A DNA stretch of 64,000 nucleotides from Candidatus Thorarchaeota archaeon (GTDB taxonomy: Archaea > Asgardarchaeota > Thorarchaeia > Thorarchaeales > Thorarchaeaceae): assembly GCA_019057475.1 (NCBI GenBank), contig DXJO01000010.1, positions 43,460 to 107,459 of the forward strand, in the 5' to 3' direction. Position 1 is the stretch's first letter, and the number at the start of each line of letters is the position of its first letter. The notes below the pieces were generated by a model that worked only from the letters and a program-made list of their open reading frames with translations, was not told where the DNA came from and made no database searches. Position numbers and translations under genes: made by a program. Positions 19,136 to 58,445 of this stretch are shown piece by piece.

Positions 19136-19163
19136 TAGCCGTTTTCCACAAATCTCTCTCTTC

Positions 19164-24579: not shown

Positions 24580-25026
24580 TCATTTGAGCATTGATTCCAG
24601 CTTAGAAAGATGTCTGGCTCTCTTAACTGCCTTGGGTGAAACTTGGTGCACCTTACCCTTTTCAACAACGAAATGGGCCGTTTCGATGTCCGGCGTAAAG
24701 TGACTCTTCAAGTCCTCTACGACGAAATGAAGCTGTACGCAATGTGGGCTGCCATCCACAGTCAAGACTGTGACCTTATTCATTTTTGAGTATCTGATGA
24801 TTGAGCCTATTTTGAAGCCCGCGTGGTTAACGTGCATCTCTTCCAAGCAAACGTGCAAGACTGCCTGACCCCCATCCTTCTCTCTGTACTCCTCAACTAT
24901 ACTTGGGAATCGACTATTCATGCAGCTGCCAACCAACAATAGCTGCCCTTTTTCTCTCAGCCTTCGATCGCCCACGTTTATGCTCATTAGGTTCTCATCG
25001 CAGTGGCATCCGCACAAGCCTACCAT
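24580..25026 (-). CDS. Hypothetical protein with an N-terminal CGCHC motif.
   Basis: MVGLCGCHCDE... GGAGG is immediately 5' of the ATG. Confidence 0.35.
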   Translation of the reverse strand: MVGLCGCHCDENLMSINVGDRRLREKGQLLLVGSCMNSRFPSIVEEYREKDGGQAVLHVCLEEMHVNHAGFKIGSIIRYSKMNKVTVLTVDGSPHCVQLHFVVEDLKSHFTPDIETAHFVVEKGKVHQVSPKAVKRARHLSKLESMLK

Positions 25027-32823: not shown

Positions 32824-33918
32824 CTAGGATTTTCTCCCCGTCGCCAGTGCGGGTTGAGCAACCTCCGCAATGGCCTGAGCAATCTTCTCGCGCTTGCACG
32901 TTGGACAGGTGGTGTACGGTTCGAAGGGAAGACTGAGTCCATCAATCGCCTTAACCGCCTCTTTCTCCGCAAGACGCTTTTTGAGATCCTCACCAAACGG
33001 AATTGGACTGAAGGGCTCTCCACAGACGGAGCATTTCTGCAATTCGACTTCCAAGTCCCAGAGAGGTTCCTCCTTCATGTACGATAACAATTCAAACCCT
33101 GGCACAATCTCAATGGCCTCTTGTGGACAGGCTTTTTCACATTCCTTGCACACAAGGCACTCAGTGTGAAGAGTTCCGTACTTGCGCTTGTCTTCTACGT
33201 CTTCAATGGAAATGACATCTTCAGGGCACACGCTATAGCACGCATAACATCCGATGCATTTGTCCGGGTCCCTCTTTGGAAAACCATAACCTTCCATGAC
33301 TTCTTCCGGTTCGAAAATCATGACCTTTTCTGGTTCATAGTCGACTCGTCTGGCGATTGAAACCAAGACCTCATGGATCTTGTGTTTCTTGGAAACTGTT
33401 TCATCCACATCCAGGTCAGTCAGGTCACTGACATCCTTCACTGGGGTGGGTCCAAGCTTCTCAATCTTATTTGTGAAATTCGCGATGACTTCTGCCCACT
33501 TCGCTCCTTCAGCTGCTGAAACATGTTCGAAGGTAATCCTATCTCCCAACCCCATCTCATCGAGTATCTTCTTGAAGAAGTCGAAGCGCTTCTTGGCGGC
33601 GATATTGCCCTCAACATAGTGACAGTCCCCAATGTGACAACCACTAATGAGAACACCATCTGCACCCATCTCAAGCGCTCGAAGCACAAACAATGGGTCA
33701 ATTCTGCCGGTGCAATTTACTCGTATAATCCGAACATTGGGGGGATGCTGTATCCTGCTTGTGCCTGCGAGGTCAGCTCCGGCGTAGGAGCACCAATTGC
33801 ACGTCAGAGCGAGAATCCTCGGAAAGAATTCCCCCTTCTTCTTTCCTTTCGATTTCGGGGCGGATGGAGTTTCTTTGCTCGTAACCGTCAAGATCAAAGG
33901 GGCCTCCGGATGCTTCAA
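32824..33918 (-). CDS. MvhD/FlpD-domain protein fused to ferredoxin domains.
   Basis: LTCNWCSYAGADLAG...CHIGDCHY MvhD signature, with all positions Cys. Two ferredoxin motifs and extra CxxC pairs follow. The start codon is TTG. Confidence 0.65.
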   Translation of the reverse strand: MKHPEAPLILTVTSKETPSAPKSKGKKKGEFFPRILALTCNWCSYAGADLAGTSRIQHPPNVRIIRVNCTGRIDPLFVLRALEMGADGVLISGCHIGDCHYVEGNIAAKKRFDFFKKILDEMGLGDRITFEHVSAAEGAKWAEVIANFTNKIEKLGPTPVKDVSDLTDLDVDETVSKKHKIHEVLVSIARRVDYEPEKVMIFEPEEVMEGYGFPKRDPDKCIGCYACYSVCPEDVISIEDVEDKRKYGTLHTECLVCKECEKACPQEAIEIVPGFELLSYMKEEPLWDLEVELQKCSVCGEPFSPIPFGEDLKKRLAEKEAVKAIDGLSLPFEPYTTCPTCKREKIAQAIAEVAQPALATGRKS

Positions 33919-34071: not shown

Positions 34072-34308
34072 ATGATTATGGCATTCATAATGGCCAAGAT
34101 TGAATCTGCAAAAGCTCGAAGCATTCTGGAACATGTCAAAGAGATTGAGGAAGTAAAAGAAGCGTTTCTCATATATGGCGCATACGATCTCTTGCTCAAG
34201 GCAGTCTTCAAAACACCCGAGGCTCTTAGCTCCTTCGTAGTGGATACGTTGCGCAAGGTCGATGGGGTCAAGGACACCATAACCAACGTCTGCGCGACTT
34301 ACGACTAG
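34072..34308 (+). CDS. Stand-alone Lrp/AsnC C-terminal (RAM) domain protein.
   Basis: 78 aa with a beta-alpha-beta-beta-alpha-beta pattern typical of AsnC_trans_reg domains. Confidence 0.45.
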   Translation: MIMAFIMAKIESAKARSILEHVKEIEEVKEAFLIYGAYDLLLKAVFKTPEALSSFVVDTLRKVDGVKDTITNVCATYD

Positions 34309-34646: not shown

Positions 34647-36539
34647 TCACTCGTCAGGAATCTCCATTCCACTGGCTTCTTCTACCAAACCAAGACGTTG
34701 CAGTGTAGATGCATACGGGATACCAGTTTCGTTGTCCCACCCACGCTTCAGATAGTACTCGTCCAACATCTGGTCCAGCTCAACTACTTCCCCCTTGGAT
34801 GGTCCAAGAGGCGCACCCTCTTTTGTCAGTCTGTCAGGAAGACAGTCATCAGCTCGTGTCACGCCACGTCTTGCATTGAATAGACGGTTCAGGTTTACGA
34901 TACGCTCCCCTATGGTCTGCAGGTCTGCTCTTGTGAACTCGAACCCATTGTGAACCTTCAGTGCAAGTGCTACATCCTCATAGTAGAACTCAGGAGGGAT
35001 TTGCGTTCCATACTTGCACAATCCTAGGCTCTCGACGACAACCATGAAGTCCTCACACTCTTTCACCATTATTCCCTTGTACTTAGGATTCAGACGTTCT
35101 GCCATCTCAGGGAGATACTCCTCTCCGAAGCGCTCCCTTATCTCATCATCAAAGCCGGCCTCATCTAGGACAGGGAATGCGTAGAGATGGTCCGCCCCCC
35201 TTGCCGCGGTGACTGCAGCAAGCCCCATGGACTTCTGAGCGCGCGGTTCTTGCCCTGCAATCTCTTGCTTTTTCACTGTCATCACAAACTTCTCGGTGCC
35301 TCGACCTATTTTCTCTGCGGCTCGTGCACTTCCTTCAGCAAGAACATCACCAAATCCCTCTCTGAAGGCAATCATCTTGATGAGCTTGACAATGGACTCA
35401 TGATTGCCCCACGAAAGGTCGATTCCATCTGTATCATCTGCCGTGAGTAGGCCCTCATCCCATGCCTCCATGGCCCAAGAGATGGTGCCACCCAAGGATA
35501 TCGTGTCCATTCCGTACTGATTGGCCAAATGATGACCAAAGAGGACTGACTCCAAGTTATCATTGCCACAACGGGAGCCCAGTGATGATTGAGTCTCAAA
35601 CTCTGGCGACCCGCCTACGTATTTGTACGGGCCTTCTTTGACGGAGGTATAGCGTGCACACCTTTGCAAGCAGCACCAGTCTGACCTTGGTTTCACAAGA
35701 TACTTCTCGGTGATTGTTTCGCCGCTTATCTTCTCATATCCCTCAAAGACCCCTTGACGCATGTTGTAGCTTGGCAGTCTCCCTATATGCTGCATCATCT
35801 CAACAAGATTAGTTGTTCCGTACTTCGCCCTTCCCGGAGTAAAGGGATTTGCCAGCATGCGACGATAGAATTCATCCATAGTATCCATGTACTTCTTGGG
35901 GTCTGCAACCTCAATCTTTCCCGCACCTCGCACACATATGGCCTTCAGCTTCTTTGAGCCCATCACCGCGCCAAGTCCAGAACGAGCGGAGGCACGGTCT
36001 CTATCATTCATCACTGCCGCAAAGCGGACAAGGTTCTCGCCTGCTTGCCCGATATAGATCAATCTGGCTCGCTTGCCGTGTCGCTTCCGCAGTATGTCAT
36101 CGGTCTCAAACACATCTCGGCCCCAGACATCATCAGCACTTAGGAGTTCCACAGTCGAGTCATTGATGTTCAAGTAGACTGGGTCTGGCGATGCTCCAGT
36201 GAAGAAAATGGCATCATAGCCTGCCAGCTTGAGTTCGGGTCCCCAGAACCCTGCCGCATGACTCTCTCCCCATACATCAGTGAGAGGCGAGAGAGCTGCA
36301 ACAACGTGTCGTGATGACTGCGGGAACATTGATGCTGTGAGCAATCCTGTGGCAAAGCCTAGGACATTCTCTGGTGAGAGTGGATCAATGTCAGTCGGAA
36401 TGGAGTCAAAGAGAACCTTTGAGAGATACCCCGCGCCAAGAAGGTACTTCTCTACAAGTTTCTTCTCAATAGGCCTCTTCTCAATCTCTCCTTTTGTTAG
36501 GTCCACCCAAATGACTTTACCACCTACTCCGTGAATCAT
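34647..36539 (-). CDS. aor: Tungsten-containing aldehyde:ferredoxin oxidoreductase (AOR family), copy 1.
   Basis: AOR_N and AOR C-terminal domains. Pterin-binding and EXXH/CxxxC cluster region present. 630 aa. Confidence 0.85.
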   Translation of the reverse strand: MIHGVGGKVIWVDLTKGEIEKRPIEKKLVEKYLLGAGYLSKVLFDSIPTDIDPLSPENVLGFATGLLTASMFPQSSRHVVAALSPLTDVWGESHAAGFWGPELKLAGYDAIFFTGASPDPVYLNINDSTVELLSADDVWGRDVFETDDILRKRHGKRARLIYIGQAGENLVRFAAVMNDRDRASARSGLGAVMGSKKLKAICVRGAGKIEVADPKKYMDTMDEFYRRMLANPFTPGRAKYGTTNLVEMMQHIGRLPSYNMRQGVFEGYEKISGETITEKYLVKPRSDWCCLQRCARYTSVKEGPYKYVGGSPEFETQSSLGSRCGNDNLESVLFGHHLANQYGMDTISLGGTISWAMEAWDEGLLTADDTDGIDLSWGNHESIVKLIKMIAFREGFGDVLAEGSARAAEKIGRGTEKFVMTVKKQEIAGQEPRAQKSMGLAAVTAARGADHLYAFPVLDEAGFDDEIRERFGEEYLPEMAERLNPKYKGIMVKECEDFMVVVESLGLCKYGTQIPPEFYYEDVALALKVHNGFEFTRADLQTIGERIVNLNRLFNARRGVTRADDCLPDRLTKEGAPLGPSKGEVVELDQMLDEYYLKRGWDNETGIPYASTLQRLGLVEEASGMEIPDE

Positions 36540-37027
36540 TGCAAATCCTCCTTTGAGTAGAGTTCCTCGCTATGTTCATCATGCAGTGCCCATATCTCGC
36601 CGTCGGGGTCTCTCTCTTCGAGTTCCCTCATTGTGGTCATCCATATGGCATCAACCGGACAGCGCTTGATGCACTCATCACACTGAATGCATTTGATAGC
36701 CTTCTCTGTGTCAGGATTAATCCGGATTGCATTGTACGGACATGCTTCGACACAGGAGCCGGAGCCAGTGCATTTCTTGTTGTTGACAATCACAATGCCC
36801 TTCGAGGTGCGCGATAGGGCTTCCTCCGGGCACGCATCAATGCAGGGAGCATCTTCGCAGTTTCTGCAGAAGAGGGTGAAATCTAAGCCTGGTTCAATGC
36901 GCACAGCTCTTACTCGAGACCGCTCTGGGCTTATCACCTTGAGGTAGCGCATGCTACACACATTGACACATATCATACAACCAGTGCATACTCGTGGATC
37001 TCCAATTACGAACTTCAAGTCGACCAT
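36536..37027 (-). CDS. Polyferredoxin (4x[4Fe-4S]), partner of AOR copy 1.
   Basis: Four Cys clusters. Overlaps AOR by 4 nt. Confidence 0.75.
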   Translation of the reverse strand: MVDLKFVIGDPRVCTGCMICVNVCSMRYLKVISPERSRVRAVRIEPGLDFTLFCRNCEDAPCIDACPEEALSRTSKGIVIVNNKKCTGSGSCVEACPYNAIRINPDTEKAIKCIQCDECIKRCPVDAIWMTTMRELEERDPDGEIWALHDEHSEELYSKEDLQ

Positions 37028-37030
37028 ATG

Positions 37031-38395
37031 CTACACCTCAAAGGGCTTGTTTCCTTCTCCCATCGCCAAGAACCGCCCGTGGCCTGGCTTCACTGTTGTT
37101 CGATCCTCATGAAATACTTGAGTCCCTCTCACGAAGGTCATGGTTGGCACTCCCTTCATTTCCATTCCCTCGTAGAGTGTCCAGCCACACTTTGAAAACA
37201 TCATGTCTGAGGTTATCTTCTCCTCTTTCGTGACATCTACGATGACGAAGTCTGCATCAGACCCGACCTGTAGTATCCCCTTCTTTGGATACAGGCCGAA
37301 TATCTTTGCAGGCTTTCGAGAGGTCACATCGAGCAGCCTTGAGAACGAGAGCCTGCCTCTATTGATTCCCTCTGAGAGGAGAATTCTGAGTATCATTTGG
37401 ATCCCATCCGCTCCTGCCCAGGCTTCCCTGATATCATCATTTCCTGCCTCCTTCTTCTCAATAGGACACGGGGCATGATCGCTGACCGTCATATCGATGA
37501 TTCCACGGAGAAGCGCCGACCAAAGCGCGGCTCGGTCAACTTTCGACCTCAGTGGCGGGTTCATCTTACTCTTGGGACCCAGTATATTCATCTCATCGCG
37601 CTGGAATACTAGGTGATGTGGACACACTTCGGTTGTGACCTTCACGCCTCCCAGCTTTCCACGTTCAACTTCACTTATGCCCTCTCGCGTGGTGATATGC
37701 GCAACGTGCAGATGGCCTCCTGTCTGGTGAGCAATCCCAACCACCTGGCGTACAGCAAGACTCTCTGCAATGTTAGGTCTGGACAATGCATGACTCACTG
37801 GGGCATCCCGGTCCCCTTCTAGGTCTCTACCAAACTCATCCAAGATCCCTTGGTCTTCAGAGTGCACTGTGATGTGACCGCCATGCTCAGAGACCTCACT
37901 GAGGAGACGGACAATCACTCCTGCATTGGTTTCATATGGTTCACACGTGAATGCCTTGAACCCAGCGATTCCCTTCCCAATCATCAGAGGGACGATTGGT
38001 ACATTTTCGGAGTTCATCATTCCAGCATAGAATGAGAAATCTATGATGGACATGGACTCGCCTTGACAGATTTTTTCCTCCACAGTTTTAACTAAATCGA
38101 CTTGGCTTGTGAGAGGCATGTCTATGACCGTAGTGACACCGCCAGCTGCAGCAGCTCTAGAGCCAGTGGTGAAGTCTTCATGGTCAAGCATCTTAGGGTC
38201 GTGCAGGTGGGCATGTCCATCTATCAGCCCAGGCATCAAGACTTTTCCTTCGGCATCTATGACTGTGTCAGCGTTTGGAAGATGCTCGTCGGTTGCTATG
38301 GCACAAATCTTGCCACCATTGACGCCAAGTCCCCCTCGTATGAGGCCTGACTCAAGAAGCAATCTTGCATTTTTGACAACAAGATCCACAGGCAC
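37031..38395 (-). CDS. Cyclic amidohydrolase (dihydropyrimidinase/allantoinase/dihydroorotase family).
   Basis: PGLIDGHAHLHDP metal site, carboxylated-Lys region, 454 aa. Confidence 0.7.
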   Translation of the reverse strand: MPVDLVVKNARLLLESGLIRGGLGVNGGKICAIATDEHLPNADTVIDAEGKVLMPGLIDGHAHLHDPKMLDHEDFTTGSRAAAAGGVTTVIDMPLTSQVDLVKTVEEKICQGESMSIIDFSFYAGMMNSENVPIVPLMIGKGIAGFKAFTCEPYETNAGVIVRLLSEVSEHGGHITVHSEDQGILDEFGRDLEGDRDAPVSHALSRPNIAESLAVRQVVGIAHQTGGHLHVAHITTREGISEVERGKLGGVKVTTEVCPHHLVFQRDEMNILGPKSKMNPPLRSKVDRAALWSALLRGIIDMTVSDHAPCPIEKKEAGNDDIREAWAGADGIQMILRILLSEGINRGRLSFSRLLDVTSRKPAKIFGLYPKKGILQVGSDADFVIVDVTKEEKITSDMMFSKCGWTLYEGMEMKGVPTMTFVRGTQVFHEDRTTVKPGHGRFLAMGEGNKPFEV

Positions 38396-38438
38396 TTCTT
38401 GTTCTCATCTCCAAATCTGATTGTGAAGCCGCGCCAAG

Positions 38439-38720
38439 TTAACCGCCACCCACAGGTGGGAACAGGGCGACAGCATCATTGTCGGCCAGCTCCGTTTCAT
38501 ATCTATCAAGCAGCTCGATTCGCTTGCCATTCACCATGCACGAGAAGAACTTTTTGAGCTCATCCGTCTTAGGGTCGATGACCACATCTATGAACGGTTT
38601 TCCAAACTGCTTCTTGAGTTTGTCCAGCAGCTCTCGTACATTCTTCGCATCCATCTCCATGCTCCTCATACCAGTAATCTCACGAACAGTGGCGAAGAAC
38701 TTCACAGTAACCGTTGCCAA
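38439..38720 (-). CDS. MoaD/ThiS/SAMP-type ubiquitin-like sulfur-carrier protein.
   Basis: 93-aa beta-grasp protein ending in ...PPVGGG (C-terminal Gly-Gly). Confidence 0.6.
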   Translation of the reverse strand: MATVTVKFFATVREITGMRSMEMDAKNVRELLDKLKKQFGKPFIDVVIDPKTDELKKFFSCMVNGKRIELLDRYETELADNDAVALFPPVGGG

Positions 38721-38814
38721 AGGTAGTCACCTAACACCGAACTCTGGAACCAAGAGATTAAAACACTTTCACTCTGACACTACGTCTCGCGATTCCAAAT
38801 GGAGTGTTGCACGA

Positions 38815-39699
38815 GTGGATATAGTCGTAGTTGGTCACCTCAGCAGAGACCTCTTAGTCACGCCGGAAACTACGAGAGAGATCTTGGGTGGGGGAACTGC
38901 ATACGCTATGCTGGCACCATCTCTTGGCATATCGAAGTGTGGGATAGTTAGCTGTATTGGCGATGACTTCGAACAGGCGTACATGAGGACTCTTGTGAAG
39001 TCAGGTCTTGACGTGACTGGTGTTGATCGAGGGGGACAGCATACAACACGATTCGTCAATCAATATGACTCCAACGGTGTTAGGACACAACGCGTCGAAG
39101 CAATCGCGGCACCAATCAGGAAGAACGCACTCTTGGAACACCATCTCCAGAGCCGGGCTATCCACTTCTGTCCTCTTATTGGAGAGATAGATATCTCGTG
39201 CATAAAGGCCGCGAAGGAGGCGGGTGTCTTAGTTTCACTGGACCCCCAAGGGTTTCTGCGCACCGTGCAGGGTGACCGGGTGGTTCCGAAGGAATGGACT
39301 GACCGCGCTGCTGTTCTAGAGCACGTTGATGTTCTGAAGCTCGACGAGGATGAGCTCCAGAGTGCCGTGGGCATTGCCACTGAACTCGATGCAGTAGGCA
39401 AGATTCTCAACGAAGGGCCTGAGATTGTGATTGTGACAAGGGATAGACGAGGATCGACAATCTACACTCAGGAGGACAAGATTGACATCCCGCTAATCTT
39501 GGCGGATCAGCTTGTTGACGCCACTGGTTCAGGTGACACCTATGCCGTCGGTTTCCTAATTGAGTATGCCAGGAATGAGAACCTGAGGCAAGCTGGAGTG
39601 TTCGGTGCCTCATGTGCCTCGTTCAATCTTGAAACCATGGGGCCCTATGAGATGCCTACTAGGGGACAGGTGGAATCTCGAATTAAGTCGTACGTATAG
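38815..39699 (+). CDS. PfkB/ribokinase-family sugar or nucleoside kinase.
   Basis: N-terminal GGG motif and DATGSGDTYAVGF anion hole. A GTG start at 38815 with GGAG 10 nt upstream is preferred, because the long ORF start at 38479 overlaps the MoaD gene. Confidence 0.6.
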   Translation: MDIVVVGHLSRDLLVTPETTREILGGGTAYAMLAPSLGISKCGIVSCIGDDFEQAYMRTLVKSGLDVTGVDRGGQHTTRFVNQYDSNGVRTQRVEAIAAPIRKNALLEHHLQSRAIHFCPLIGEIDISCIKAAKEAGVLVSLDPQGFLRTVQGDRVVPKEWTDRAAVLEHVDVLKLDEDELQSAVGIATELDAVGKILNEGPEIVIVTRDRRGSTIYTQEDKIDIPLILADQLVDATGSGDTYAVGFLIEYARNENLRQAGVFGASCASFNLETMGPYEMPTRGQVESRIKSYV

Positions 39700-39751
39700 C
39701 TGACGGAAGAAGGCTTTTCACATACCTAAATGGCATCTGAGCAAGACTGGA

Positions 39752-40945
39752 GTGACAACGGTGCTTGAAGATCTAGACGCTCTGATGGATGTAAATGAAA
39801 TTGATGCTCTCCTCGTTGTTGGCAATGTATTCGAGGTGCCAGATATCTACTGGCTCACAGGATTCAGGTCTCCGGATACTATCACCTACTTTCACAGTAA
39901 GGGCAACAAACCCGTTGGGATAGCTGGATTCAACACAATCAAACGAATTAAGACACAGAGTTTTCTAAAGAGAACGTACGACATCTCTGAACTCCTTCTG
40001 AAGTTCAGGAAGGCAGGAAAGAGGGCAGCCGATCGTCCTGACATCGTGTACGGGACAATCCTTCAGGAACACTTCACTGGCAAAATTCTGGGAGTTCCTA
40101 ATCATCTTCCAGCTCGGATACTTGTGGCTATCCAGAAGCTTGGATACACTGTCAAAGTGGTTCCAGACCTGCTCAAGGATGCACGTGCCACCAAGTCGAA
40201 GGCTGAGATCAAGACTATCAAGAAGGCAGGAGATGCTACAATCAGCGCGATTGAGCGAATTGCTAAGATGATTAAGAAGTCCAAGGTGGGACCAAAGAAG
40301 CAGCTCCTCTTGAAGAGTAATCCTCTGACCGTGCAGGACATTAAGCTCGCTCTTGAGCACTTCTTGCTGGACAGAGGGGCCGAGTCAGCAGAGGACGCGA
40401 TTGCCGCTGTGGGCAAGAAAGGCTTCGATTGGCACTATCTCGGAGCTCCAAAAGATGTGCTCAAGGCTGGAGTTCCCATAATCCTTGATGTCTTTCCTAG
40501 ACTGAAGCAGGAGAGGTATGTGGCAGACGTCACTCGCACTGTAGTCAAGGGGCAGCCGCATAAGAACGTGCACGCAATGTTCGAGGCGGTCATTGCCGCT
40601 TCAGATGCAGTCGTTGATGCGCTCACTGATGATGCGCCCATTGATGAAGTAAACATGGCTTGTTATCAAACATTGAAAAAGCACGGGTTTGATTCAACTA
40701 GGCTGAATCCTGAAGCTGTCGAGGGAATGACGCACGGTCTAGGTCATGGGATTGGCTTGGAAGTTCACGAGAATCCAAGCTTCTATGATCGGGAGGGGGG
40801 GTTCGTTGCGGGTCATGTTGTAGCGATTGAACCCGGTGTCTACCTGAAGGCTCATGGTGGCGTCAGAATCGAGAATGACTATGCAGTCACCACGCGAAAG
40901 CCTAAACGATTGACCATTGGACTCGACGACATCATGTACTTGTAG
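39752..40945 (+). CDS. M24-family Xaa-Pro aminopeptidase/prolidase.
   Basis: HGLGHGIGLEVHE plus pita-bread metal ligands. Confidence 0.7.
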   Translation: MTTVLEDLDALMDVNEIDALLVVGNVFEVPDIYWLTGFRSPDTITYFHSKGNKPVGIAGFNTIKRIKTQSFLKRTYDISELLLKFRKAGKRAADRPDIVYGTILQEHFTGKILGVPNHLPARILVAIQKLGYTVKVVPDLLKDARATKSKAEIKTIKKAGDATISAIERIAKMIKKSKVGPKKQLLLKSNPLTVQDIKLALEHFLLDRGAESAEDAIAAVGKKGFDWHYLGAPKDVLKAGVPIILDVFPRLKQERYVADVTRTVVKGQPHKNVHAMFEAVIAASDAVVDALTDDAPIDEVNMACYQTLKKHGFDSTRLNPEAVEGMTHGLGHGIGLEVHENPSFYDREGGFVAGHVVAIEPGVYLKAHGGVRIENDYAVTTRKPKRLTIGLDDIMYL

Positions 40946-40961
40946 CATATCGCCCATTCAG

Positions 40962-42074
40962 TCAGTTGTAGCTCAGGGCGTCATGCGGACAGACCGAGAT
41001 ACACATACCACAAGCTTGACATCTTGATTTGTCGAAGCGCAGTTCCTGTCCTTCCTTATCAGTTGATATTGCTTCATAGACACAGGACTTCTCACAGAGT
41101 CCACAGAGTGTGCATTTCTCCATGTCTACCTTTGGAGGTGGCGTGAAAACGATTTTCTTTGTGAGGTGCTTAAGCCCCAACCCTCGCACGTCTTCTACCG
41201 AGTCATAGCCATGAGCATCCAGCCACTTGTCCATCTCAGATGCAATGCGGCCATACACAGTCTGCCCCTCTAGGATTGCAGCTGTGCATACCTCGACAGC
41301 ATGAGCTCCGGCCATGATGAATTCTATCGCGTCTTCTCCGTCGCTAACTCCTCCCACACCGATCACAGGCTTTCGGATTGCCCGGGCGATGTCTGCCACA
41401 CACCGTATTGCTACTGGTTTTATTGATGCACCACTAAGCCAACCGTAGCCCGATTCACTCCCCAGCATGGGTTTACCGGTTTCTATGTCAATTCTGAGAC
41501 ATGGTCCCAGTGAGTTTATCGCGACCACTCCATCGACGTAAGGTTCCACTGACTTGGCTACTTCGACAACATCTACCTTCGGACTAAGCTTCGCAAAGAT
41601 GGGTATCTCAACAGCCTCACGCAACGCCTTTGCAATTTCGACATGCCCACCAACATAATGGGTACTGAATTCCAGTGCATGGACTCCCGCCTTCTCAATC
41701 TTCGGCGCGAGGCCAGCAACGTCTTCCGGAGTGTATCCTAGACTAGCAATCACAGGAAGACCAGTGTCCAATGCGATTTTGTATTCCTTGTCAAGCCACT
41801 GTTCAATCGGCAGCTCGCTCCATAGTTCTGCGTTGAGGATGCCCCGTCTTGAGCCTGCTCTTCCTTTGCGAACTGCAACAATGTTCGGGGTGGGCACTTT
41901 TGCAGCGCTCACGCTTACAGTCTTTGCAACGAGTCCGCCTGCGCCACCTTTTGCAGCCACGAGAAGAGTATCGCCGTCACGCGCTCCAGGGCCAGCAGCA
42001 GTAAGAACGGGATTCCTAAGAGTGAAACTTGTGACTTCGACACTGAGGTCAGCCATTTTATTTTCCTCTAGCAA
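40962..42074 (-). CDS. PreA-like dihydropyrimidine/dihydroorotate dehydrogenase catalytic subunit with a C-terminal 2x[4Fe-4S] domain.
   Basis: DHOD class-1 TIM barrel, then CTLCGLCEKSC and CQACGMCISVCP. Confidence 0.7.
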   Translation of the reverse strand: MLEENKMADLSVEVTSFTLRNPVLTAAGPGARDGDTLLVAAKGGAGGLVAKTVSVSAAKVPTPNIVAVRKGRAGSRRGILNAELWSELPIEQWLDKEYKIALDTGLPVIASLGYTPEDVAGLAPKIEKAGVHALEFSTHYVGGHVEIAKALREAVEIPIFAKLSPKVDVVEVAKSVEPYVDGVVAINSLGPCLRIDIETGKPMLGSESGYGWLSGASIKPVAIRCVADIARAIRKPVIGVGGVSDGEDAIEFIMAGAHAVEVCTAAILEGQTVYGRIASEMDKWLDAHGYDSVEDVRGLGLKHLTKKIVFTPPPKVDMEKCTLCGLCEKSCVYEAISTDKEGQELRFDKSRCQACGMCISVCPHDALSYN

Positions 42075-43995
42075 GCATCTTTCTCTTCGCTAGGTCGTCA
42101 GCAACATAATCGAGACCAAGCTCTTGAAGCTTCTCTCTCTTCGGAAATCCTGTTTCCCTGTCACAACCCCTGAAATCGTAGTACTCGTCCAGCATCTCGT
42201 CTAGGTCGGGAAGTCCACCCTTCGCTGGGCCTGTGGGCATGGGCTCCTTGAGCAGCCTTTGAGGTAAGTTCTCTTGCTTTCGCGTGATTCCTAGTCTGTG
42301 GTTATACGCGCGCCTCAGATGGCTAATCCTCTCAGCCGCCTGCTTTACGTATTTCGTGTCGGACCATTCAGTCATCCCCGTCAGCGGCGAGATAACATTC
42401 ACAAACGTATCATAGTAGTAAATTGGCGGCCACATCGTGGAATACTTGCAAATGACTGCAGAGTCAACTAACGCGTATAGGTCCTCAATGTCCTTGATAA
42501 TCTCACCCTTATGTTTTGGTGACATTATGTCCAGTATTTCATCGGCTTTCTCCGCACCGAATCTCTCACTCACAATATCCGGATAGCCCAGTTCTTCAAG
42601 ACTGGATAGACTCCTGAGATGGTCTGCTCCTCTCACATTAGTGGCGTAGGTGAGACCTACCGACTGGTGCGCTCTCGGATCTTGTCCTGAAGCCTCAAGC
42701 CCTTTCACATGCACCGCGTATTTCCAAGCGTCCCCGCCAATAATCTCAGCTGCTTTCCTCACGCCCTTGGAAAGCATGTCACCTATCCCCTCGCGTTTGC
42801 CAATCATCTCAACGAGCTTGACCATGGAGTCCACATTACCCCACGAGAGGTCGAGTCCATCGGTGTCCTTCTTTGTTAGAATGCCTTTCTCCCAAAGCTC
42901 CATTGCAAAGCCTATGGTCTTGCCGCATGAAATCGTATCCATCCCAATCAGGTCACACCTTGTACCCATATGGAATATGGACTCGACATCATTATTCAGA
43001 CAATTGGAACCAAATGCCATGAGTGTTTCGTATTCTGGCCCTCCTGCCGGCCCTCCTCCGAATGCGCCTTCCTTCACCTTGTATATGTATTTGCATCCAA
43101 TTGCGCATCCGTGACATGCCTCCTGAGTGGTTCGGTAATTCTCAGCAATTGTTTCAGGCCCGATATCATCAGCCTGCTCGTAGAACCCTGTCCAGTGATT
43201 TTTCGTAGGCAGTCTGCCTATCTCGTTGATGATGGCAACAAGGTCAGTTGTGCCGTACTTCCTCAAAGAAGCCAATGATGCAGTCCAGAGTGGGTCGTTT
43301 AGCTTGGCCATTTCCTCAGCATTGGCCTCTAGGTACTTGTCCATATCATGGACCTCAAGGCCAAGCGAACCCCTGCACGCAATGCCCTTCACATTCTTGG
43401 AACCCAAAACTGCTCCAATGCCACAACGGCCTGCGGCACGATAAACATCTACTATAACGCTGGCATACGATACCAACTTTTCTCCTGCTGTTCCAATTAC
43501 AGCGGTTTCGACAGCGGGGTCTTTGTGCTCCTCTCGAATCATCTGAGTGGTGATATCGGTTTCGCGTCCCCAAAGATCGGAAGCATCAAGAAGTTCAGCA
43601 TGTCCGTCACGGAGGAAGAGGTACACATGCTTCGGTGACCTGCCACGAATCACCACGAAGTCAAAACCTGCGTACTTCATCTCTGGTCCAAAGAATCCAC
43701 CTACATGGCTTTCAGCCCAGACGCCTGTGAGTGGCCCCTTTGCCGCGAACATCATTCGTCCTGACGGTGAGAACATAGAACCTGTGAGTGGCCCAGTACC
43801 TATGACAACCACGTTGTCCGGTGAGAGCGGATCTGTGTCTGGTCCGGTCGAGTCCCATAGTATCCTTGCTGCGACACCTGAGCCCCCCAAGTACAGTCGC
43901 GCCCATTCCTTCTCCATCTCGCGCTTGTGGATTTTACCCTTAGTAAGGTCGACATCCAGGTAGTGCCCTGCGTATCCCTTGTATGGAAACGTCAT
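42058..43995 (-). CDS. aor: Tungsten-containing aldehyde:ferredoxin oxidoreductase (AOR family), copy 2.
   Basis: Paralog of copy 1 with the same domain order. 645 aa. Confidence 0.85.
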   Translation of the reverse strand: MTFPYKGYAGHYLDVDLTKGKIHKREMEKEWARLYLGGSGVAARILWDSTGPDTDPLSPDNVVVIGTGPLTGSMFSPSGRMMFAAKGPLTGVWAESHVGGFFGPEMKYAGFDFVVIRGRSPKHVYLFLRDGHAELLDASDLWGRETDITTQMIREEHKDPAVETAVIGTAGEKLVSYASVIVDVYRAAGRCGIGAVLGSKNVKGIACRGSLGLEVHDMDKYLEANAEEMAKLNDPLWTASLASLRKYGTTDLVAIINEIGRLPTKNHWTGFYEQADDIGPETIAENYRTTQEACHGCAIGCKYIYKVKEGAFGGGPAGGPEYETLMAFGSNCLNNDVESIFHMGTRCDLIGMDTISCGKTIGFAMELWEKGILTKKDTDGLDLSWGNVDSMVKLVEMIGKREGIGDMLSKGVRKAAEIIGGDAWKYAVHVKGLEASGQDPRAHQSVGLTYATNVRGADHLRSLSSLEELGYPDIVSERFGAEKADEILDIMSPKHKGEIIKDIEDLYALVDSAVICKYSTMWPPIYYYDTFVNVISPLTGMTEWSDTKYVKQAAERISHLRRAYNHRLGITRKQENLPQRLLKEPMPTGPAKGGLPDLDEMLDEYYDFRGCDRETGFPKREKLQELGLDYVADDLAKRKMLARGK

Positions 43996-43997
43996 CT

Positions 43998-44510
43998 CTA
44001 CGCATCCACCTCCGAGAGGCCGTACGCTGTTCTTAGGTTCCGAACGCTATCACTTCGGCCCCGAAGTCCATGGCTGTCAGTTGATTGCAATGATATGGCC
44101 TGATACGTGCATGCGTCGATGCAGGCGGGTTCTCCTCCACAGAGGTCACACTTGATTGCCTTCCTAAGAAGAGGGTCTATCGCGATGCCCCCATAGATGC
44201 AGGCAGTTACACAGTTGGAGCATCCAATGCATAGGTCGTGATTAACCGTGAGAACACCAGCGCTGTTCTCAGAGATCGCACCTGTTGGGCAAGCCTCAGC
44301 ACAGAGCGGCGAATCGCACTGCAAACAGACCATCGGTATGACCATCGCCCGAAATTCCTCCTTGAGAATTTGGATTCTTGCACGAGCCGGGTTGAATGTA
44401 TTTGTGTGGTGTACTGAACAGGCCAGCTCACAGTTTCGGCAACCGGTACAGAGATTATTATCTATTGCAAGGGCTTTCCTCAAGTCACTCGAGCTCTCCT
44501 TGGTCACCAT
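43998..44510 (-). CDS. Polyferredoxin (4x[4Fe-4S]), partner of AOR copy 2.
   Basis: Four Cys clusters. The gap to AOR is 2 nt. Confidence 0.75.
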   Translation of the reverse strand: MVTKESSSDLRKALAIDNNLCTGCRNCELACSVHHTNTFNPARARIQILKEEFRAMVIPMVCLQCDSPLCAEACPTGAISENSAGVLTVNHDLCIGCSNCVTACIYGGIAIDPLLRKAIKCDLCGGEPACIDACTYQAISLQSTDSHGLRGRSDSVRNLRTAYGLSEVDA

Positions 44511-44699: not shown

Positions 44700-46499
44700 A
44701 TGACTCCACAGACCAAGAAACCAACGACTGCATTTCGCTCAGCGAGAGCAAGAGATCAAGAGATGTTCGATAAGATATCTCTCGCAGTAGTGGAGTTTGA
44801 CCCTGAGCTAAACGTACTATATGCGAATCCGGCTGCACAGAATCTTCTAGGCATGAAACAGTCGGACATTGACACAGGATTGCACGTTTCTGATTTGGTT
44901 GTTTCCGAGCAGGTGAAACTTGTTCAGGAGGCTTTCAGACGCCTTCGGAATGGTGCTGAGCCTACTTCGCTCTCTCTAAGAGCAGTACGCAAAGATGGGA
45001 TTCAGATTCCCATTGAAGTGTTCGCCGACATGATTCATCACCGCGGCAAGCTCAAGGGCTATGTTGTGTACGCAACCGATATGACACGTCGCGCACAAAT
45101 CGTGGACAAGCTCAGAGAGAAAAGCGCGTTCTTCAAGACCGCCGTTGAATACTCGCATGTGGGCATATTCCAAGTAGGACACAACTTTAGATTCGAATAC
45201 ATGAATGACAGACTCTGCGATATGGTGGGCCGGACTCGGAGTGAGCTTCTGGGACACGATTTCCGCGAATTCCTTCACCCCGACAGTGTGGACCTTGTTG
45301 CAGACCGTTATGTGAGGCGACAACGTGGGGAAAAGGTACCATCGGTATATCAGTTCAAAATCGTCCGGAAGAACGGCACGCCAAGGGATGTAGAGATATC
45401 AAGCACCTCCATGATGGGTCGGGATGGTAGGATGAACACCATCGGCCAGATTCTGGACATCACAGAGGAAGTGGAGAGCAAACAAGCTCTTGGGGAGAGC
45501 GAACGTAGATACCGTGATCTTGTAGAAACCATGGATGACGGGTTGGCCACAGATGACGAGATCGGAGTGATTACCTACGTCAATGACGCTTTCTGCAAGA
45601 TGTTAGGTTATACTCGTGATGAGATAGTTGGCCTTTCAGGATACGAGATTTTTCACAGTATCACTCAGAACGGCTATGGCAACAAATCCATCGCCCGTGC
45701 GGAGGGGATCACCGAGCACTATGAGGCTGAATTGCTCGCCAAGAATGGTACAACAGTGCCGGTCATGGTTTCCGCTTGCCCACTCCCAACAGAGAGTGGG
45801 GATTACAAGGGAAGTTTCGCGTTATTCACTGACATTTCCGAACTCAAGAGTGTTGAGGCCGAAGCGCGCTTCCTACTTGATTTGATACTTCATGACATAG
45901 GCAACCAGTTGCAGTTGGTTCTTGCCGGTGCCGACCTTGCCAACAAGGAGTCGTCCCCCGAAGTCATTGAGACTGCCCAACAATACATCCTAGATGGTGC
46001 ACACCGTTGTATTGAGCTGATTCACAAGGTACGAAGTGCAGAGGAGTCAAAGGTTGAGCCTCTCAGGCCAATGGACTTGATTGAAGTGGTGGTTGGCGAG
46101 GCGCTTTTGCTTGCACGACAGCATGGCGTTACTCCTAAGATGAAGAATCTGCCAGAAACATTGATGGTTAATGCTGATAGTGCCCTGAGTCAGCTTGTAT
46201 GGAACCTCATGGAGAATGCAACAAAACATAACAGGAATCCTAAGAAGAGAATATGGATCAACGGACGGAGGGTGAGAGGGAACAAGTTCAAGATTACTAT
46301 TGCTGACAACGGGCCAGGTCTGAGTGATTCGAAGAAAATTCAGGTATTCAGCTCAGAACGGAGATTCGGTGGGGTGGGTCTTCATCTTGTGCGACGTCTG
46401 ATCAAGAAGTATGGCGCCATGCTTGAAATCAAGGACCGTGTGCGGGGCAGGCCAGGCAAAGGTCTCAAGGTTATAATCACGTTTGATATTCTCAAATAG
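44700..46499 (+). CDS. Multi-PAS sensor histidine kinase.
   Basis: 3-4 PAS repeats, H-box LHDIGNQLQ, N box ENATKHN, G1 DNGPGL, G2 GGVGL. Confidence 0.75.
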   Translation: MTPQTKKPTTAFRSARARDQEMFDKISLAVVEFDPELNVLYANPAAQNLLGMKQSDIDTGLHVSDLVVSEQVKLVQEAFRRLRNGAEPTSLSLRAVRKDGIQIPIEVFADMIHHRGKLKGYVVYATDMTRRAQIVDKLREKSAFFKTAVEYSHVGIFQVGHNFRFEYMNDRLCDMVGRTRSELLGHDFREFLHPDSVDLVADRYVRRQRGEKVPSVYQFKIVRKNGTPRDVEISSTSMMGRDGRMNTIGQILDITEEVESKQALGESERRYRDLVETMDDGLATDDEIGVITYVNDAFCKMLGYTRDEIVGLSGYEIFHSITQNGYGNKSIARAEGITEHYEAELLAKNGTTVPVMVSACPLPTESGDYKGSFALFTDISELKSVEAEARFLLDLILHDIGNQLQLVLAGADLANKESSPEVIETAQQYILDGAHRCIELIHKVRSAEESKVEPLRPMDLIEVVVGEALLLARQHGVTPKMKNLPETLMVNADSALSQLVWNLMENATKHNRNPKKRIWINGRRVRGNKFKITIADNGPGLSDSKKIQVFSSERRFGGVGLHLVRRLIKKYGAMLEIKDRVRGRPGKGLKVIITFDILK

Positions 46500-46591: not shown

Positions 46592-47989
46592 ATGAAATCC
46601 GCTAAGTCACTCCTTGTCAAGAACGGCTACATTCTCACAATGAATCCCCGCAGGGAGATAATCCGAGATGGGACCGTGTACATCGAAGGTCAGAAGATTA
46701 TAGAAGTGGGCAAGAGTGAAGCACTGAAGAGTCGAAAGGCGGAGGTTGAGATAGACGCCCGGAATATGATCGTGATGCCTGGGCTCATTGACACCCATGT
46801 TCATCTCGCTCAAGCGCTGATTCGGGGGTGTGCCGATGATGTCGCATTGGTTGATTGGTTGAAGAACTACGTCTGGGTGTTGCAGGGGAATTTCACACAT
46901 GACGATGGCAGGGTGTCAGCAGAGCTCTGTATGGCCGAGATGATAAAGACGGGCACTACCGCTTTCGTTGAGTGCATGATTCATACTCGGTACGGTTTCG
47001 ATGGCATTGCGAAAGCGGTGGAACAGGCGGGAATGAGAGGTGCGCTTTCAAAGATAATCATGGACTCCACTGGATATGCCGATAGCCCCGACATCATGTA
47101 TCCTGGAATGGTCGAAGATGCTGATGCCTGCTTGAAGGAAACAGAAACTATGCTGGCGCGCTGGCATGGAAAAGCCGACGGACGGATTCAGGTGTGGTAC
47201 GGACTACGATCTCTTGGTGCTGTTAGCGAAGAGCTGTTCAAGGATGTGGGAAGACGTACTAGGTCCCACAAGACGCAAATGACAATGCATCTGGGTGAGG
47301 TGCCCGACGATGTCAGATACGTCCGGCAGAACCACGATATGAGCCTCACAGAGTTTGCTGAGACGCAGGGGCTTCTGGGACCAGAGATGATATTCGCTCA
47401 CGGGATTCATTTCGAGGAATCTGATCTCAAGCGGCTAGCTGAAACACGCTCCAACGTGAGTCACTGTCCTGCAAGCAACACGAAGCTGGCTTCAGGGTTT
47501 GCCAGGATTCCTCGCATGCTGGAACTTGGTGTACCTGTTTCACTAGGTTGTGACGGCGGACCAAGTAATAACACGTATGACATGATTCGTGAGATGCGCC
47601 TTGCAGCACTAATCCATAAGCCAATTGCTAACGACCCGTTGGTTGTCAGTGCTGAAGAAGTCATTGAGATGGCAACTCTCGGTGGTGCAGTTGCTATGGG
47701 TATCTCCGATACTGTCGGCTCTCTGGAACCCGGTAAACATGCAGATCTGATTCTTGTGGACATGAGCGATTTGGGGCTCACTCCAAACACCAATCCTGTT
47801 TCCAATCTCGTCTATGCAGGGTCTGGTCATGCGGTAGATACAGTAGTCGTGAATGGCAGACTGCTGATGAGAAACCGGGAACTACTGACCATGGATGAAA
47901 CCGAGGTGAAGAAGAAGGCTCTTAGACATAGCAAGGATCTCATAGAGCGAGCTGGCGTGGATATCAGTCCCAAGTGGCCTGTTCTCTAG
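46592..47989 (+). CDS. Amidohydrolase of the MtaD/SsnA/guanine-cytosine deaminase family.
   Basis: MPGLIDTHVHLAQ ... HCPASN ... D ligand pattern. Confidence 0.7.
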   Translation: MKSAKSLLVKNGYILTMNPRREIIRDGTVYIEGQKIIEVGKSEALKSRKAEVEIDARNMIVMPGLIDTHVHLAQALIRGCADDVALVDWLKNYVWVLQGNFTHDDGRVSAELCMAEMIKTGTTAFVECMIHTRYGFDGIAKAVEQAGMRGALSKIIMDSTGYADSPDIMYPGMVEDADACLKETETMLARWHGKADGRIQVWYGLRSLGAVSEELFKDVGRRTRSHKTQMTMHLGEVPDDVRYVRQNHDMSLTEFAETQGLLGPEMIFAHGIHFEESDLKRLAETRSNVSHCPASNTKLASGFARIPRMLELGVPVSLGCDGGPSNNTYDMIREMRLAALIHKPIANDPLVVSAEEVIEMATLGGAVAMGISDTVGSLEPGKHADLILVDMSDLGLTPNTNPVSNLVYAGSGHAVDTVVVNGRLLMRNRELLTMDETEVKKKALRHSKDLIERAGVDISPKWPVL

Positions 47990-52461: not shown

Positions 52462-52605
52462 CGTATCAATCTCCTCGTTATTCTCGTGATGCTGTCCATT
52501 TGAATTTGTAGGCTCCGATTTTCTCCAGATATGGTTATCTTTTTGCACACGGTTCTTGGCGCGCTTCCACGAAGCCTTTTACGAGGAAGCTACATTCCTA
52601 GCACG

Positions 52606-58237: not shown

Positions 58238-58445
58238 TGAACCAATCTCCGAGAGCTGGATTCCAGTAAATGACCTCAAGGGCATCGAGAAGGCAAGACA
58301 GGCTCTTACGCAGGAATAGCAGCTCAAGAGTGAGGGTTCAGCTCTCGTCAACCATATATTTATCCAAGAGGCAATGCTCCAAATACCTTCAGCACAATCA
58401 CTCAACTCTTAGAACAGCATAATATTCTCGGGAGTTTGACTGACC

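Follow-up and report, generated by a model that had tools for sequence, protein, structure and literature searches.

A question raised by this locus is why genes for tungsten enzymes of the aldehyde:ferredoxin oxidoreductase (AOR) family should be interleaved with those for a flavoprotein and two amidohydrolases; namely, whether these are ordinary aldehyde oxidoreductases with unrelated neighbours or the parts of one catabolic module. We analysed a stretch of 64,000 nucleotides (hereafter the window) from an Asgard archaeon, Candidatus Thorarchaeota archaeon (assembly GCA_019057475.1, contig DXJO01000010.1, positions 43,460–107,459). An initial annotation had described two paralogous ferredoxin–AOR operons, each wired to a pyrimidine-ring enzyme, and had proposed ferredoxin-linked reductive catabolism of pyrimidines or nucleosides. 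The reading that we favour, with about even confidence, is that the island represents, in Thorarchaeota, a conserved and mainly archaeal cluster that appears not to have been described before and that encodes a tungsten- and ferredoxin-wired module for nucleobase catabolism, with a purine-type substrate more likely than a pyrimidine. The genes on which this reading turns, with positions in the window, are as follows.

34647–36539, minus strand: AOR1, tungsten AOR-family catalytic subunit, 630 amino acids (Pfam AFOR_N and AFOR_C).
36536–37027, minus strand: Fd1, AorA-type polyferredoxin with 15 Cys (Pfam and NCBIfam Fer4 families).
37031–38395, minus strand: cyclic amidohydrolase of the allantoinase/L-hydantoinase type, 454 amino acids (Amidohydro_1).
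38439–38720, minus strand: MoaD/SAMP-like small sulfur-carrier protein with a C-terminal GGG (ThiS/MoaD_arch).
38815–39699, plus strand: PfkB-family kinase, 294 amino acids in the gene call (Pfam PfkB; the mechanical open reading frame (ORF) starts at 38479).
39752–40945, plus strand: M24B (prolidase/aminopeptidase-P-like) metallohydrolase (Pfam Peptidase_M24, 136 bits).
40962–42074, minus strand: Cys-less protein resembling dihydropyrimidine dehydrogenase (DPD) and PreA (PF01180 (DHO_dh) and Fer4; two CxxCxxCxxxC motifs).
42058–43995, minus strand: AOR2, tungsten AOR-family catalytic subunit, 645 amino acids (AFOR_N and AFOR_C).
43998–44510, minus strand: Fd2, AorA-type polyferredoxin with 16 Cys, which suffice for four [4Fe-4S] clusters (Pfam Fer4 families).
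46592–47989, plus strand: COG0402 amidohydrolase ('MtaD/DadD-like'), 465 amino acids (NCBIfam).

All of the ORFs named in the initial annotation are present at these positions with the domain content claimed for them, including the PfkB kinase, the M24 hydrolase and the COG0402 'MtaD-like' enzyme. Its junctions of 0–4 nt hold for AOR1/Fd1 (a 4-nt overlap), Fd1/amidohydrolase (a gap of 3 nt) and Fd2/AOR2 (2 nt), but not for MoaD/amidohydrolase, which are 43 nt apart. One nucleotide separates the TAA of AOR2 from the ATG of 'MADLSV...', at which homologues of the DPD-like gene start; this ATG, at 42056, is the probable true start, and the two genes overlap by 17 nt if the upstream TTG is taken. 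The PfkB gene probably starts near 38815 and therefore does not overlap the MoaD gene. Reading across the island, the order is COG0402 amidohydrolase and a PAS-domain histidine kinase; Fd2, AOR2 and the DPD-like gene; M24 and PfkB; MoaD, cyclic amidohydrolase, Fd1 and AOR1; and finally a small ORF and an AsnC-type gene.

A scan of GTDB species representatives yielded 80 loci, in which the island proteins were then searched by tblastn; linkage counts are limited to loci with enough upstream sequence (at least 2.5 kb for Thorarchaeota (Thor) loci). Homologues of the DPD-like protein that are 62–72% identical occur in dozens of Thor metagenome-assembled genomes (MAGs), and the whole island gene order is repeated in dozens of them. 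In 43/43 Thor loci the DPD-like gene is preceded by an Fd–AOR pair, with a gap of at most 150 nt in 18. The same arrangement is found in 20 of the 21 non-Thor loci, with a gap of at most 150 nt in 19. These loci, whose DPD-like proteins are 51–57% identical, come from at least eight lineages besides Thor (Hermod-, Baldr-, Odin-, Bathy-, Kor- and Geothermarchaeota, Nitrososphaeria/Thermoproteota and one member of the Bacillota), and the sole exception is a Baldr locus with AORs immediately downstream and divergently upstream. At locus L005, the AOR stop and the DPD-like start overlap. The tight junction of the window is not universal. An inserted gene for a CLC chloride channel with CBS domains was observed between AOR2 and the DPD-like gene at locus L001 (8118–9956). 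We rejected the idea that synteny merely reflects the close kinship of Thor MAGs, given that the core linkage is kept at 51–57% identity, in other phyla and in the Bacillota. The linkage of AOR, polyferredoxin and DPD-like genes is not by chance, and the coupling of an AOR and polyferredoxin to a DHOD-fold protein and an amidohydrolase, proposed from the window alone, is evolutionarily conserved across Thor and non-Thor loci.

The two operons are not a recent duplication, as the word 'paralogous' might have implied. AOR1 and AOR2 each belong to their own orthologous group across phyla (the AOR2 group spans at least eight archaeal lineages and the AOR1 group includes one member of the Bacillota), so the operons are ancient, co-inherited modules. 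A third group, AOR3, occurs in several lineages, which brings the clusters to two or three AOR paralogue groups. Fd1 is conserved upstream of AOR1 in both Thor and non-Thor loci, M24 is present in 24/25 long Thor loci, and the COG0402 amidohydrolase keeps its position in Thor loci and has homologues in 12/15 long non-Thor loci.

The Fd–AOR pairs appear from their sequences to be protomers of the AorAB/WOR5 type. AOR1 and AOR2 share 44% identity and Fd1 and Fd2 35%; both AORs match PF02730 at 240–245 bits and PF01314 at 415–425 bits (Pfam), with 9mqx_D, AorB (8c0z_A) and Pyrococcus furiosus (Pf) AOR (1aor) as the nearest Protein Data Bank (PDB) structures. The best PDB matches of Fd2 are AorA of the Aromatoleum aromaticum (Aa) AOR (8c0z_C, 111.6 bits), 9mqx_E and the WOR5 beta subunit (6x6u_B). 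The aorABCDE operon encodes a four-cluster subunit (AorA), a tungsten subunit (AorB), an FAD subunit (AorC) and two MoaD-like maturation factors, AorD and AorE (PMC6365974), and AorAB protomers polymerise on an AorA Fe–S nanowire with the flavin subunit AorC as a cap (PMC10413684). Because the organization is alike, the Fd–AOR pairs and the MoaD-like gene follow a known pattern: the order polyferredoxin, tungsten AOR, flavin subunit is that of AorABC(DE) from A. aromaticum (and of the Moorella thermoacetica AOR), and MoaD-like maturation genes stand in the operon, as they do in the island. This pattern accounts for the MoaD-like gene, which is no evidence of a tie to the amidohydrolase. Its product passes TIGR01687 moaD_arch (72.5, cutoff 49.5; NCBIfam) and is, by analogy, a probable maturation factor for the tungsten cofactor (metallopterin); MoaD-like genes recur within non-Thor clusters.

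The island nevertheless differs from AorABC. AorC binds FAD/NAD, whereas the third subunit of the island is a DPD-like FMN TIM-barrel with 2x[4Fe-4S], and no FAD/NAD-binding counterpart of AorC is encoded in the island (Pfam and gene calls). The clusters are mainly archaeal, have two or three AOR paralogues and carry amidohydrolases within the operons; in the island AORs, Gln stands in for the second-shell Tyr (Pf 427, Aa 443) and Asp for Cys447. In Pf numbering, AOR2 keeps T243, E313, H448 and the CxxCxxxC...C motif, with Y427 replaced by Gln and C447 by Asp, and AOR1 likewise has Y427Q and C447D. The positions of the proximal [4Fe-4S] ligands (Pf C288, C291, C295 and C494) are occupied in both, with Asp as the first ligand in AOR1 (DxxCxxxC...C), as reported for WOR5. 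Across about 120 cluster AORs, Thr243, Glu311/313, His448 and the Fe–S ligands are kept, Tyr427 is Gln in nearly all and Cys447 is Asp. Tyr427 is listed in a review among the second-shell residues conserved in most aldehyde-oxidising AORs, the exceptions being His in AOR-Cf and WOR5 and Trp in the inactive WOR4; with Tyr427 replaced, the cluster AORs fall outside the broad-range AORs sensu stricto, though Thr, Glu and His are kept. WOR5/ASOR of P. furiosus is also an archaeal AOR with a dedicated four-cluster polyferredoxin, as a heterodimer, and shares the Asp-for-Cys substitution with AOR1. It differs in having lost the second-shell Thr and in having His for Tyr, where the island AORs keep Thr and have Gln; unlike the island AORs, it has no flavoprotein or amidohydrolase partners described. 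C332 of AOR2 (Pf Leu322) was considered as a tungsten ligand of the BamB/YdhV type and set aside because the position is C, V, A, L, I or T among cluster AORs. Fd1 has only three Cys, one too few, in its third cluster motif (C86-x5-C92-x3-C96); the wire of the AOR1 protomer may therefore contain a [3Fe-4S] cluster, or a ligand other than Cys, at this point.

The flavoprotein consists of a DHO_dh FMN TIM-barrel and a C-terminal 2x[4Fe-4S] ferredoxin domain. The initial annotation called it PreA-like, and this identity needs revision. The protein is 26% identical to PreA and falls under every NCBIfam cutoff (NF006183 PreA, 175.6 versus 335; PRK07259, for class 1B PyrD, 176.5 versus 269); the family profile best matches domains IV–V of pig DPD (147 bits), then PyrDB (125 bits), and DPD is also the top Foldseek match of its AlphaFold model (pLDDT 80.5). 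An invariant (F/Y)STHY motif (EFSTHY in the window) takes the place of the catalytic Cys loop in 82/82 members examined; the counterparts are ELNLSCPH in DPD, CNFSCPQ in Escherichia coli PreA and ELNISCPN in PyrDB. Catalytic Cys671 and Asn668 are lost throughout the family and the lid loop is shortened. The FMN Lys, GGV motifs, LNxELxSE (Asn609), INT (Asn736) and eight ferredoxin Cys are kept, and the equivalents of the substrate-facing DPD residues N609 and N736 are invariant in the family. The protein thus shares with pig DPD and E. coli PreA the succession of FMN TIM-barrel and 2x[4Fe-4S] and the N609 and N736 motifs, and differs in having (F/Y)STHY and a shortened lid where they have NxSCP (Cys671) and Asn668. 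With the catalytic Cys loop replaced in 82/82 members, it is neither PyrD nor a canonical PreA/PydA. Neither the window contig, searched over ±10 kb, nor the related loci showed a PreT-type (FAD/NAD, GltD-like) partner, and BLASTP gave no significant match to YgfK, so a YgfK relationship was dropped.

PydAc of Clostridium chromiireducens, a ferredoxin-dependent DPD, offers a bacterial precedent that tempers the novelty first claimed for ferredoxin-linked pyrimidine redox chemistry. Like the island protein it has no FAD/NADPH domain, and this shared absence implies a low-potential Fe–S donor for the latter. PydAc is described as being without only the FAD/NADPH domains and so retains its N-terminal ferredoxin domain; the island protein starts directly with the barrel and has no N-terminal Fdx1 domain.

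The cyclic amidohydrolase is best regarded as a candidate ring-opening hydrolase of the allantoinase/L-hydantoinase-like type, rather than as the pyrimidine-ring enzyme (dihydropyrimidinase (DHPase) or PyrC) that the initial annotation had suggested. It scores 341.3 against a cutoff of 357.85 for the NCBIfam allantoinase model TIGR03178, 344.5 against 631 for NF004839 and 316 bits for D-hydantoinase/DHPase models. All dihydroorotase (DHOase) equivalogs are under cutoff, and only the permissive TIGR00857 pyrC_multi is passed (302.5 versus 279). Among PDB structures, L-hydantoinase 1GKR ranks first (264 bits), followed by allantoinases (228), D-hydantoinases (222) and DHOases (at most 188); identity is 33% to E. 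coli AllB and 30% to HyuA. The binuclear metal ligands (HxH, carboxylated Lys, His, His and Asp) are complete, the motifs DGHAH, FKAF, VHSE, AH and SDHAP align with AllB and HyuA, and SDHAPCP and AWxG are AllB-like. The Arg of the HxHxR motif binds the substrate carboxylate in the DHOases of E. coli, CAD and Bacillus; at this position the window protein reads HAHLH and its orthologues have H, N, Y or F, with no Arg. For the COG0402 enzyme, the best NCBIfam match is 5'-deoxyadenosine deaminase (415 bits, cutoff 522), the 8-oxoguanine deaminase model (307) is also under cutoff, and identity to E. coli GuaD is 27%. An assignment as SsnA was rejected, with models at 217 and 199 bits (cutoffs 444 and 455), 22% identity to the E. 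coli protein and higher scores for DadD/MtaD-type models. The enzyme is a candidate nucleobase or nucleoside deaminase or SsnA-like ring hydrolase.

Genes that accompany the cluster elsewhere bear on its substrate. Non-Thor clusters run Fd–AOR–DPD-like–Fd–AOR3–(cyclic or COG0402 amidohydrolase)–AOR1, with the MoaD-like genes inside; across lineages, the clusters combine a cyclic amidohydrolase with one to three COG0402 amidohydrolases. All Hermod loci, the Nitrososphaeria loci and the Bacillota locus have two paralogous carbamoyltransferases of the knotted type beside the cluster. M20 peptidases are present in L078, L080 and L086 (34% identical to YgeY in L078 and L080), and transporters of the PnrA/Bmp nucleoside ABC type in L064, L078, L080, L085 and L086. 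The Bacillota locus L086 (MAG JACIYH010000021.1, 1–18844) is a bacterial copy of the cluster, in the order carbamoyltransferase fragment, carbamate kinase (45% identical to E. coli YqeA), carbamoyltransferase, Fd–AOR, Fd–AOR, DPD-like (STHY type), third AOR, PnrA-type ABC transporter and M20 peptidase; the copy suggests horizontal transfer. A MoeA-like gene and a ThrC-like pyridoxal-phosphate enzyme are found near non-Thor clusters, and amino-acid permeases flank some loci.

This inventory resembles that of the bacterial reductive uric acid/2,8-dioxopurine pathway, which was worked out in 2025, in bacteria only, with NADH, ferredoxin and F420 variants. The pathway comprises XdhD, the flavin reductase YgfK, two ring-opening enzymes (SsnA for the six-membered ring, HyuA for the hydantoin ring), YgeW and YqeA, which yield ATP from the ureido group, YgeY and YgeX. 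Reduction by YgfK alone is reported to be thermodynamically unfavourable, and in Clostridioides difficile the PF01180 protein UacX, which has no FAD domain and is thought to use ferredoxin, replaces YgfK. The archaeal clusters appear to contain analogues of nearly all of the hydrolytic and ATP-yielding steps. Shared with the bacterial clusters are a PF01180 reductase without an NAD(P)H module (UacX-like), COG0402 and cyclic amidohydrolases and a peptidase-type amidase; the knotted carbamoyltransferases, carbamate kinase, YgeY-like M20 and purine/nucleoside-type transport are matched in the sister clusters. Instead of the Mo enzymes of the bacteria, with their inputs from NAD(P)H or ferredoxin, the archaeal clusters have predicted tungsten AORs and polyferredoxins, and no Mo enzyme of the xanthine-dehydrogenase family (XdhD/DOPDH) was found among the scanned genes of the island or the related loci examined. 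The Thor island further differs in using M24, in having no YgeW, YqeA or YgeX, and in a COG0402 enzyme that is not SsnA by cutoff; YgeX was not found in the window or in the sister clusters scanned. The published papers on the bacterial pathway mention neither archaea nor tungsten. Literature searches for AOR with dihydroorotate dehydrogenase, for AOR with purine, amidohydrolase or carbamoyltransferase, and for Thorarchaeota with dihydroorotate returned nothing relevant, and no paper linking AORs to such clusters was found.

From domain identities, motif changes and conserved linkage we infer a complex, a direction of electron flow and a substrate. By analogy with AorABC, Fd2, AOR2 and the DPD-like protein would form a three-subunit enzyme in which the latter replaces AorC: a tungsten-pterin/[4Fe-4S] catalytic subunit, a 4x[4Fe-4S] polyferredoxin 'wire' and an FMN/2x[4Fe-4S] subunit. 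Electrons from an oxidation at tungsten, or from the ferredoxin pool, would pass along the Fe–S chain to FMN, which would reduce a C=C or C=N bond of an N-heterocycle, with His139 and Tyr140 as possible proton donors in place of the usual Cys. Fd1–AOR1 would be a second protomer and may dock on the same wire. The cyclic (allantoinase/hydantoinase-like) and COG0402 amidohydrolases would then open the reduced ring or rings, and M24 may process the ureido or amide products, a task that two carbamoyltransferases, carbamate kinase and the M20 peptidase would have in other lineages. The PfkB kinase could handle the nucleoside or ribose part, and the MoaD-like protein would serve tungsten-cofactor synthesis. 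Part of the original proposal thus survives: transporters, carbamoyltransferases, carbamate kinase, M20 and the COG0402 enzymes in related loci favour the catabolism of an N-heterocycle of the nucleobase or ureide type. Its choice of a pyrimidine fares less well, as two ring hydrolases and two carbamoyltransferases correspond to two rings and two ureido groups and fit a purine-type substrate better.

Several observations weigh against this reading. To our knowledge, the AOR family is associated with aldehydes, sulfonates and benzoyl-CoA, not with purines, and no aldehyde occurs among the intermediates of the reductive purine pathway, which leaves the AORs without an evident chemical role. This is the main weakness: the AORs either oxidise some aldehyde (malonic semialdehyde, if the substrate is a pyrimidine) or carry out chemistry like that of xanthine dehydrogenase, for which we know of no precedent in the family. 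Ring reduction at the FMN of the DPD-like protein is an assumption, since the catalytic Cys and Asn668 are absent, and the protein could be a pure electron-transfer subunit. Every island enzyme scores below the curated cutoffs of the specific purine or pyrimidine catabolic equivalogs. The Hermod loci have no cyclic amidohydrolase within 10 kb, 25/43 Thor loci hold 0.25–4 kb of other genes between AOR2 and the DPD-like gene, and the PALP gene of some loci matches threonine synthase rather than diaminopropionate ammonia-lyase. In the window, no clear gene for a carbamoyltransferase, a carbamate kinase, an M20 peptidase or YgeX was seen; there is only a 32-bit OTCace-like ORF at 52531–53598. A bolder form of the nucleobase proposal, to which we give only a small chance, is that the cluster AORs are not aldehyde oxidoreductases at all and act as tungsten hydroxylases or dehydroxylases of purine-type heterocycles, replacing the Mo/Se xanthine-dehydrogenase family. 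They would share a polyferredoxin wire to a Cys-less, DPD-like dearomatising reductase, with ATP made via carbamoyl phosphate, as an archaeal counterpart of the 2,8-dioxopurine pathway.

A ferredoxin-linked reductive pyrimidine (Pyd-type) pathway would solve the problem of the AORs and merits attention, unlikely as we judge it. The DPD-like protein would reduce uracil or thymine as PydAc does, with the cyclic amidohydrolase as dihydropyrimidinase; cleavage of the ureido acid would fall to M24 or the carbamoyltransferases, and the AORs would oxidise (methyl)malonic semialdehydes and return the electrons to the reductase, thereby gaining a genuine aldehyde substrate in what would be a redox-neutral loop. 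The DPD-like fold with its two pyrimidine-binding Asn, the ferredoxin-dependent uracil reduction by PydAc and the 316-bit D-hydantoinase/DHPase matches, close below allantoinase, agree with this. Cys671 and Asn668 are absent from every member, however, as is the N-terminal ferredoxin domain of PydAc from the island protein; the amidohydrolase ranks with L-hydantoinase and allantoinase over DHPase and has AllB-like motifs; and two amidohydrolase types and two carbamoyltransferases are more than a monocyclic pyrimidine needs. A β-ureidopropionase of the nitrilase or M20 type, which the initial annotation had proposed to look for, was not found in the window, and neither was a β-alanine aminotransferase. 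Alternatively, the AORs may be ordinary AorABC-like aldehyde oxidoreductases for peptide or organic-acid fermentation, with the DPD-like protein as an alternative flavin exit or entry for electrons (for example, to a soluble acceptor) and the amidohydrolases, M24 and PfkB as functionally unrelated neighbours. The conserved Thr243, Glu313, His448 and Fe–S ligands fit this, a lost Cys loop is compatible with a non-catalytic FMN, and papers on Asgard archaea treat such unclassified, highly expressed AORs as generic aldehyde/acid converters. We nonetheless rate it as quite unlikely, given amidohydrolases interleaved within AOR operons (MoaD, cyclic amidohydrolase, Fd1 and AOR1 in Thor; AOR3, cyclic or MtaD-like amidohydrolase and AOR1 elsewhere) across phyla and in the Bacillota, the recurrence of carbamoyltransferases, carbamate kinase and nucleoside-type transporters, the invariant substrate-facing Asn residues of the DPD-like protein and the change of Tyr427 to Gln in about 120 cluster AORs, which is not seen in characterised broad-range AORs.

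Improbable, in our view, is the catabolism of another cyclic amide or ureide, such as hydantoins and N-carbamoyl amino acids, allantoin-type compounds that give glyoxylate, creatinine or pterins, with the AORs oxidising the released aldehyde (glyoxylate, for example). Among solved structures, the amidohydrolase is closest to an L-hydantoinase and next closest to allantoinases, and its motifs are AllB-like; carbamoyltransferase and carbamate kinase also mark anaerobic allantoin/oxalurate catabolism, according to one study (PMC11326118). Amino-acid permeases beside some loci would suit such substrates too. Yet these pathways do not need a DPD-like reductase, and a substrate among the nucleosides or bases would better suit the PnrA-type transporters, the deaminase-like COG0402 enzymes and a PfkB that resembles a nucleoside kinase. 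The formation of allantoin, moreover, normally needs oxidative steps, which are unlikely in these anaerobes. The suggestion that the amidohydrolase and the DHOD-fold protein are biosynthetic PyrC and PyrD, beside AOR genes by chance, has next to no likelihood. The TIGR00857 pyrC_multi score given above, matches of about 176 bits to pyrD_sub1 models and the label 'dihydroorotate dehydrogenase' on homologues in JGI auto-annotations are in its favour. Motifs (catalytic loop and HxHxR), curated cutoffs and AOR linkage all led us to reject it: the DHOD-fold protein, with its 2x[4Fe-4S] tail, lacks the catalytic Cys/Ser loop, is under all PyrD cutoffs and has no PyrK neighbour on the window contig; the amidohydrolase is under all DHOase equivalog cutoffs and has no HxHxR Arg; and strict linkage to AORs across phyla is unexpected of housekeeping pyr genes. 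A biosynthetic role, which the initial annotation had named among the grounds for refuting its proposal, is thus all but excluded for the flavoprotein and improbable for the amidohydrolase.

If the island is a nucleobase module, an FMN/Fe–S DPD-like cap and interleaved amidohydrolases would extend the uses of the AOR scaffold, for which FAD/NAD-capped 'nanowires' are already known, and the cluster may reveal non-aldehyde chemistry in the AOR family. The 'unclassified' AORs of Asgard archaea are abundant, highly expressed and without assigned substrates, and tying a defined subset of them to nucleobase or ureide breakdown would give that subset a testable role, possibly in recycling the nitrogen and carbon of nucleic acids in anoxic sediments. 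An archaeal tungsten variant, if true, would be a further, mechanistically distinct solution to reductive purine catabolism. The (F/Y)STHY motif and the Gln427/Asp447 signature of the AORs are simple markers for finding these enzymes, and the Bacillota cluster may be more tractable for experiments.

Among the remaining island proteins, the PfkB kinase has only weak NCBIfam matches, and its best PDB match is MJ0406 (2c49, 79 bits), which we take to be the nucleoside kinase of Methanocaldococcus jannaschii. The M24 protein best matches Pyrococcus Xaa-Pro dipeptidases in the PDB (about 85 bits); by inspection, five metal-ligand motifs are present, and the protein is metal-competent and prolidase-like. 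This Thor-specific hydrolase is a candidate amidase for a ring-opened intermediate. Three further genes lie in or beside the island:

44700–46499, plus strand: PAS-domain sensor histidine kinase, divergent from the Fd2 operon (gene caller start 44763).
34320/34383–34637, plus strand: conserved hypothetical protein, 84–105 amino acids, flanking AOR1 (gene call on the window's contig).
About 34072–34308, plus strand: small AsnC-type regulatory-domain protein, flanking AOR1 (gene call and Pfam, window's contig).

The histidine kinase (Pfam PAS_9/PAS/PAS_4 x3 and HATPase_c) occurs in 21/25 long Thor loci and in none of the non-Thor loci, and is a likely Thor-specific regulator of the island. Coordinates of the AsnC-type and hypothetical pair, which recurs in loci L001, L003 and L006, were converted from gene calls on the window's own contig (locus L004). 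Adjoining AOR1, an MvhD/FlpD–ferredoxin fusion is encoded at 32824–33918 (minus strand); at the same position in L001, L003 and L006 (about 18–21 kb) there are FlpD and the small and large [NiFe] hydrogenase (Mvh-like) subunits, and the hydrogenase genes seem to have been replaced or lost on the window contig. On the other side, a 531-amino-acid protein beside the COG0402 amidohydrolase (48001–49596, minus strand) has no Pfam or NCBIfam match, and its counterpart in L006 has only faint helix–turn–helix matches. The OTCace-like ORF (52531–53598, plus strand; Pfam OTCace, 32 bits) is separated from the island by about 4.5 kb that include an ABC transporter. It is a divergent carbamoyltransferase-like sequence, recognisable only in its Asp/Orn-binding half; its identity to the L065 cluster carbamoyltransferase is 26%, and a similar weak match was seen in Thor locus L021.

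Rfam and consensus scans of the window returned nothing bearing on the island, and the sigma-70 consensus is unsuited to archaea. A selenocysteine-decoding locus at 14852–19928, comprising archaeal SelB (14852–16249), SepSecS (16170–17555), tRNA-Sec (19045–19131, Rfam 52 bits) and a KTI12/PSTK-like kinase (19164–19928, minus strand), implies that this Thor archaeon encodes selenoproteins. Outside the island, an AstE/AspA-family (succinylglutamate desuccinylase/aspartoacylase-like) deacylase with weak similarity to DoeB of the ectoine pathway is encoded at 25020–25961 (minus strand), and an IS5-family transposase (26826–27740, minus strand; NCBIfam 162 bits, above cutoff) lies beside leucyl-tRNA synthetase (27936–30851). 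Unrelated glycan genes occupy 56149–63728 (plus strand) and encode a nucleotidyltransferase, two NAD-dependent epimerase/dehydratases and glycosyltransferases of families GT2, GT87 and GT4.

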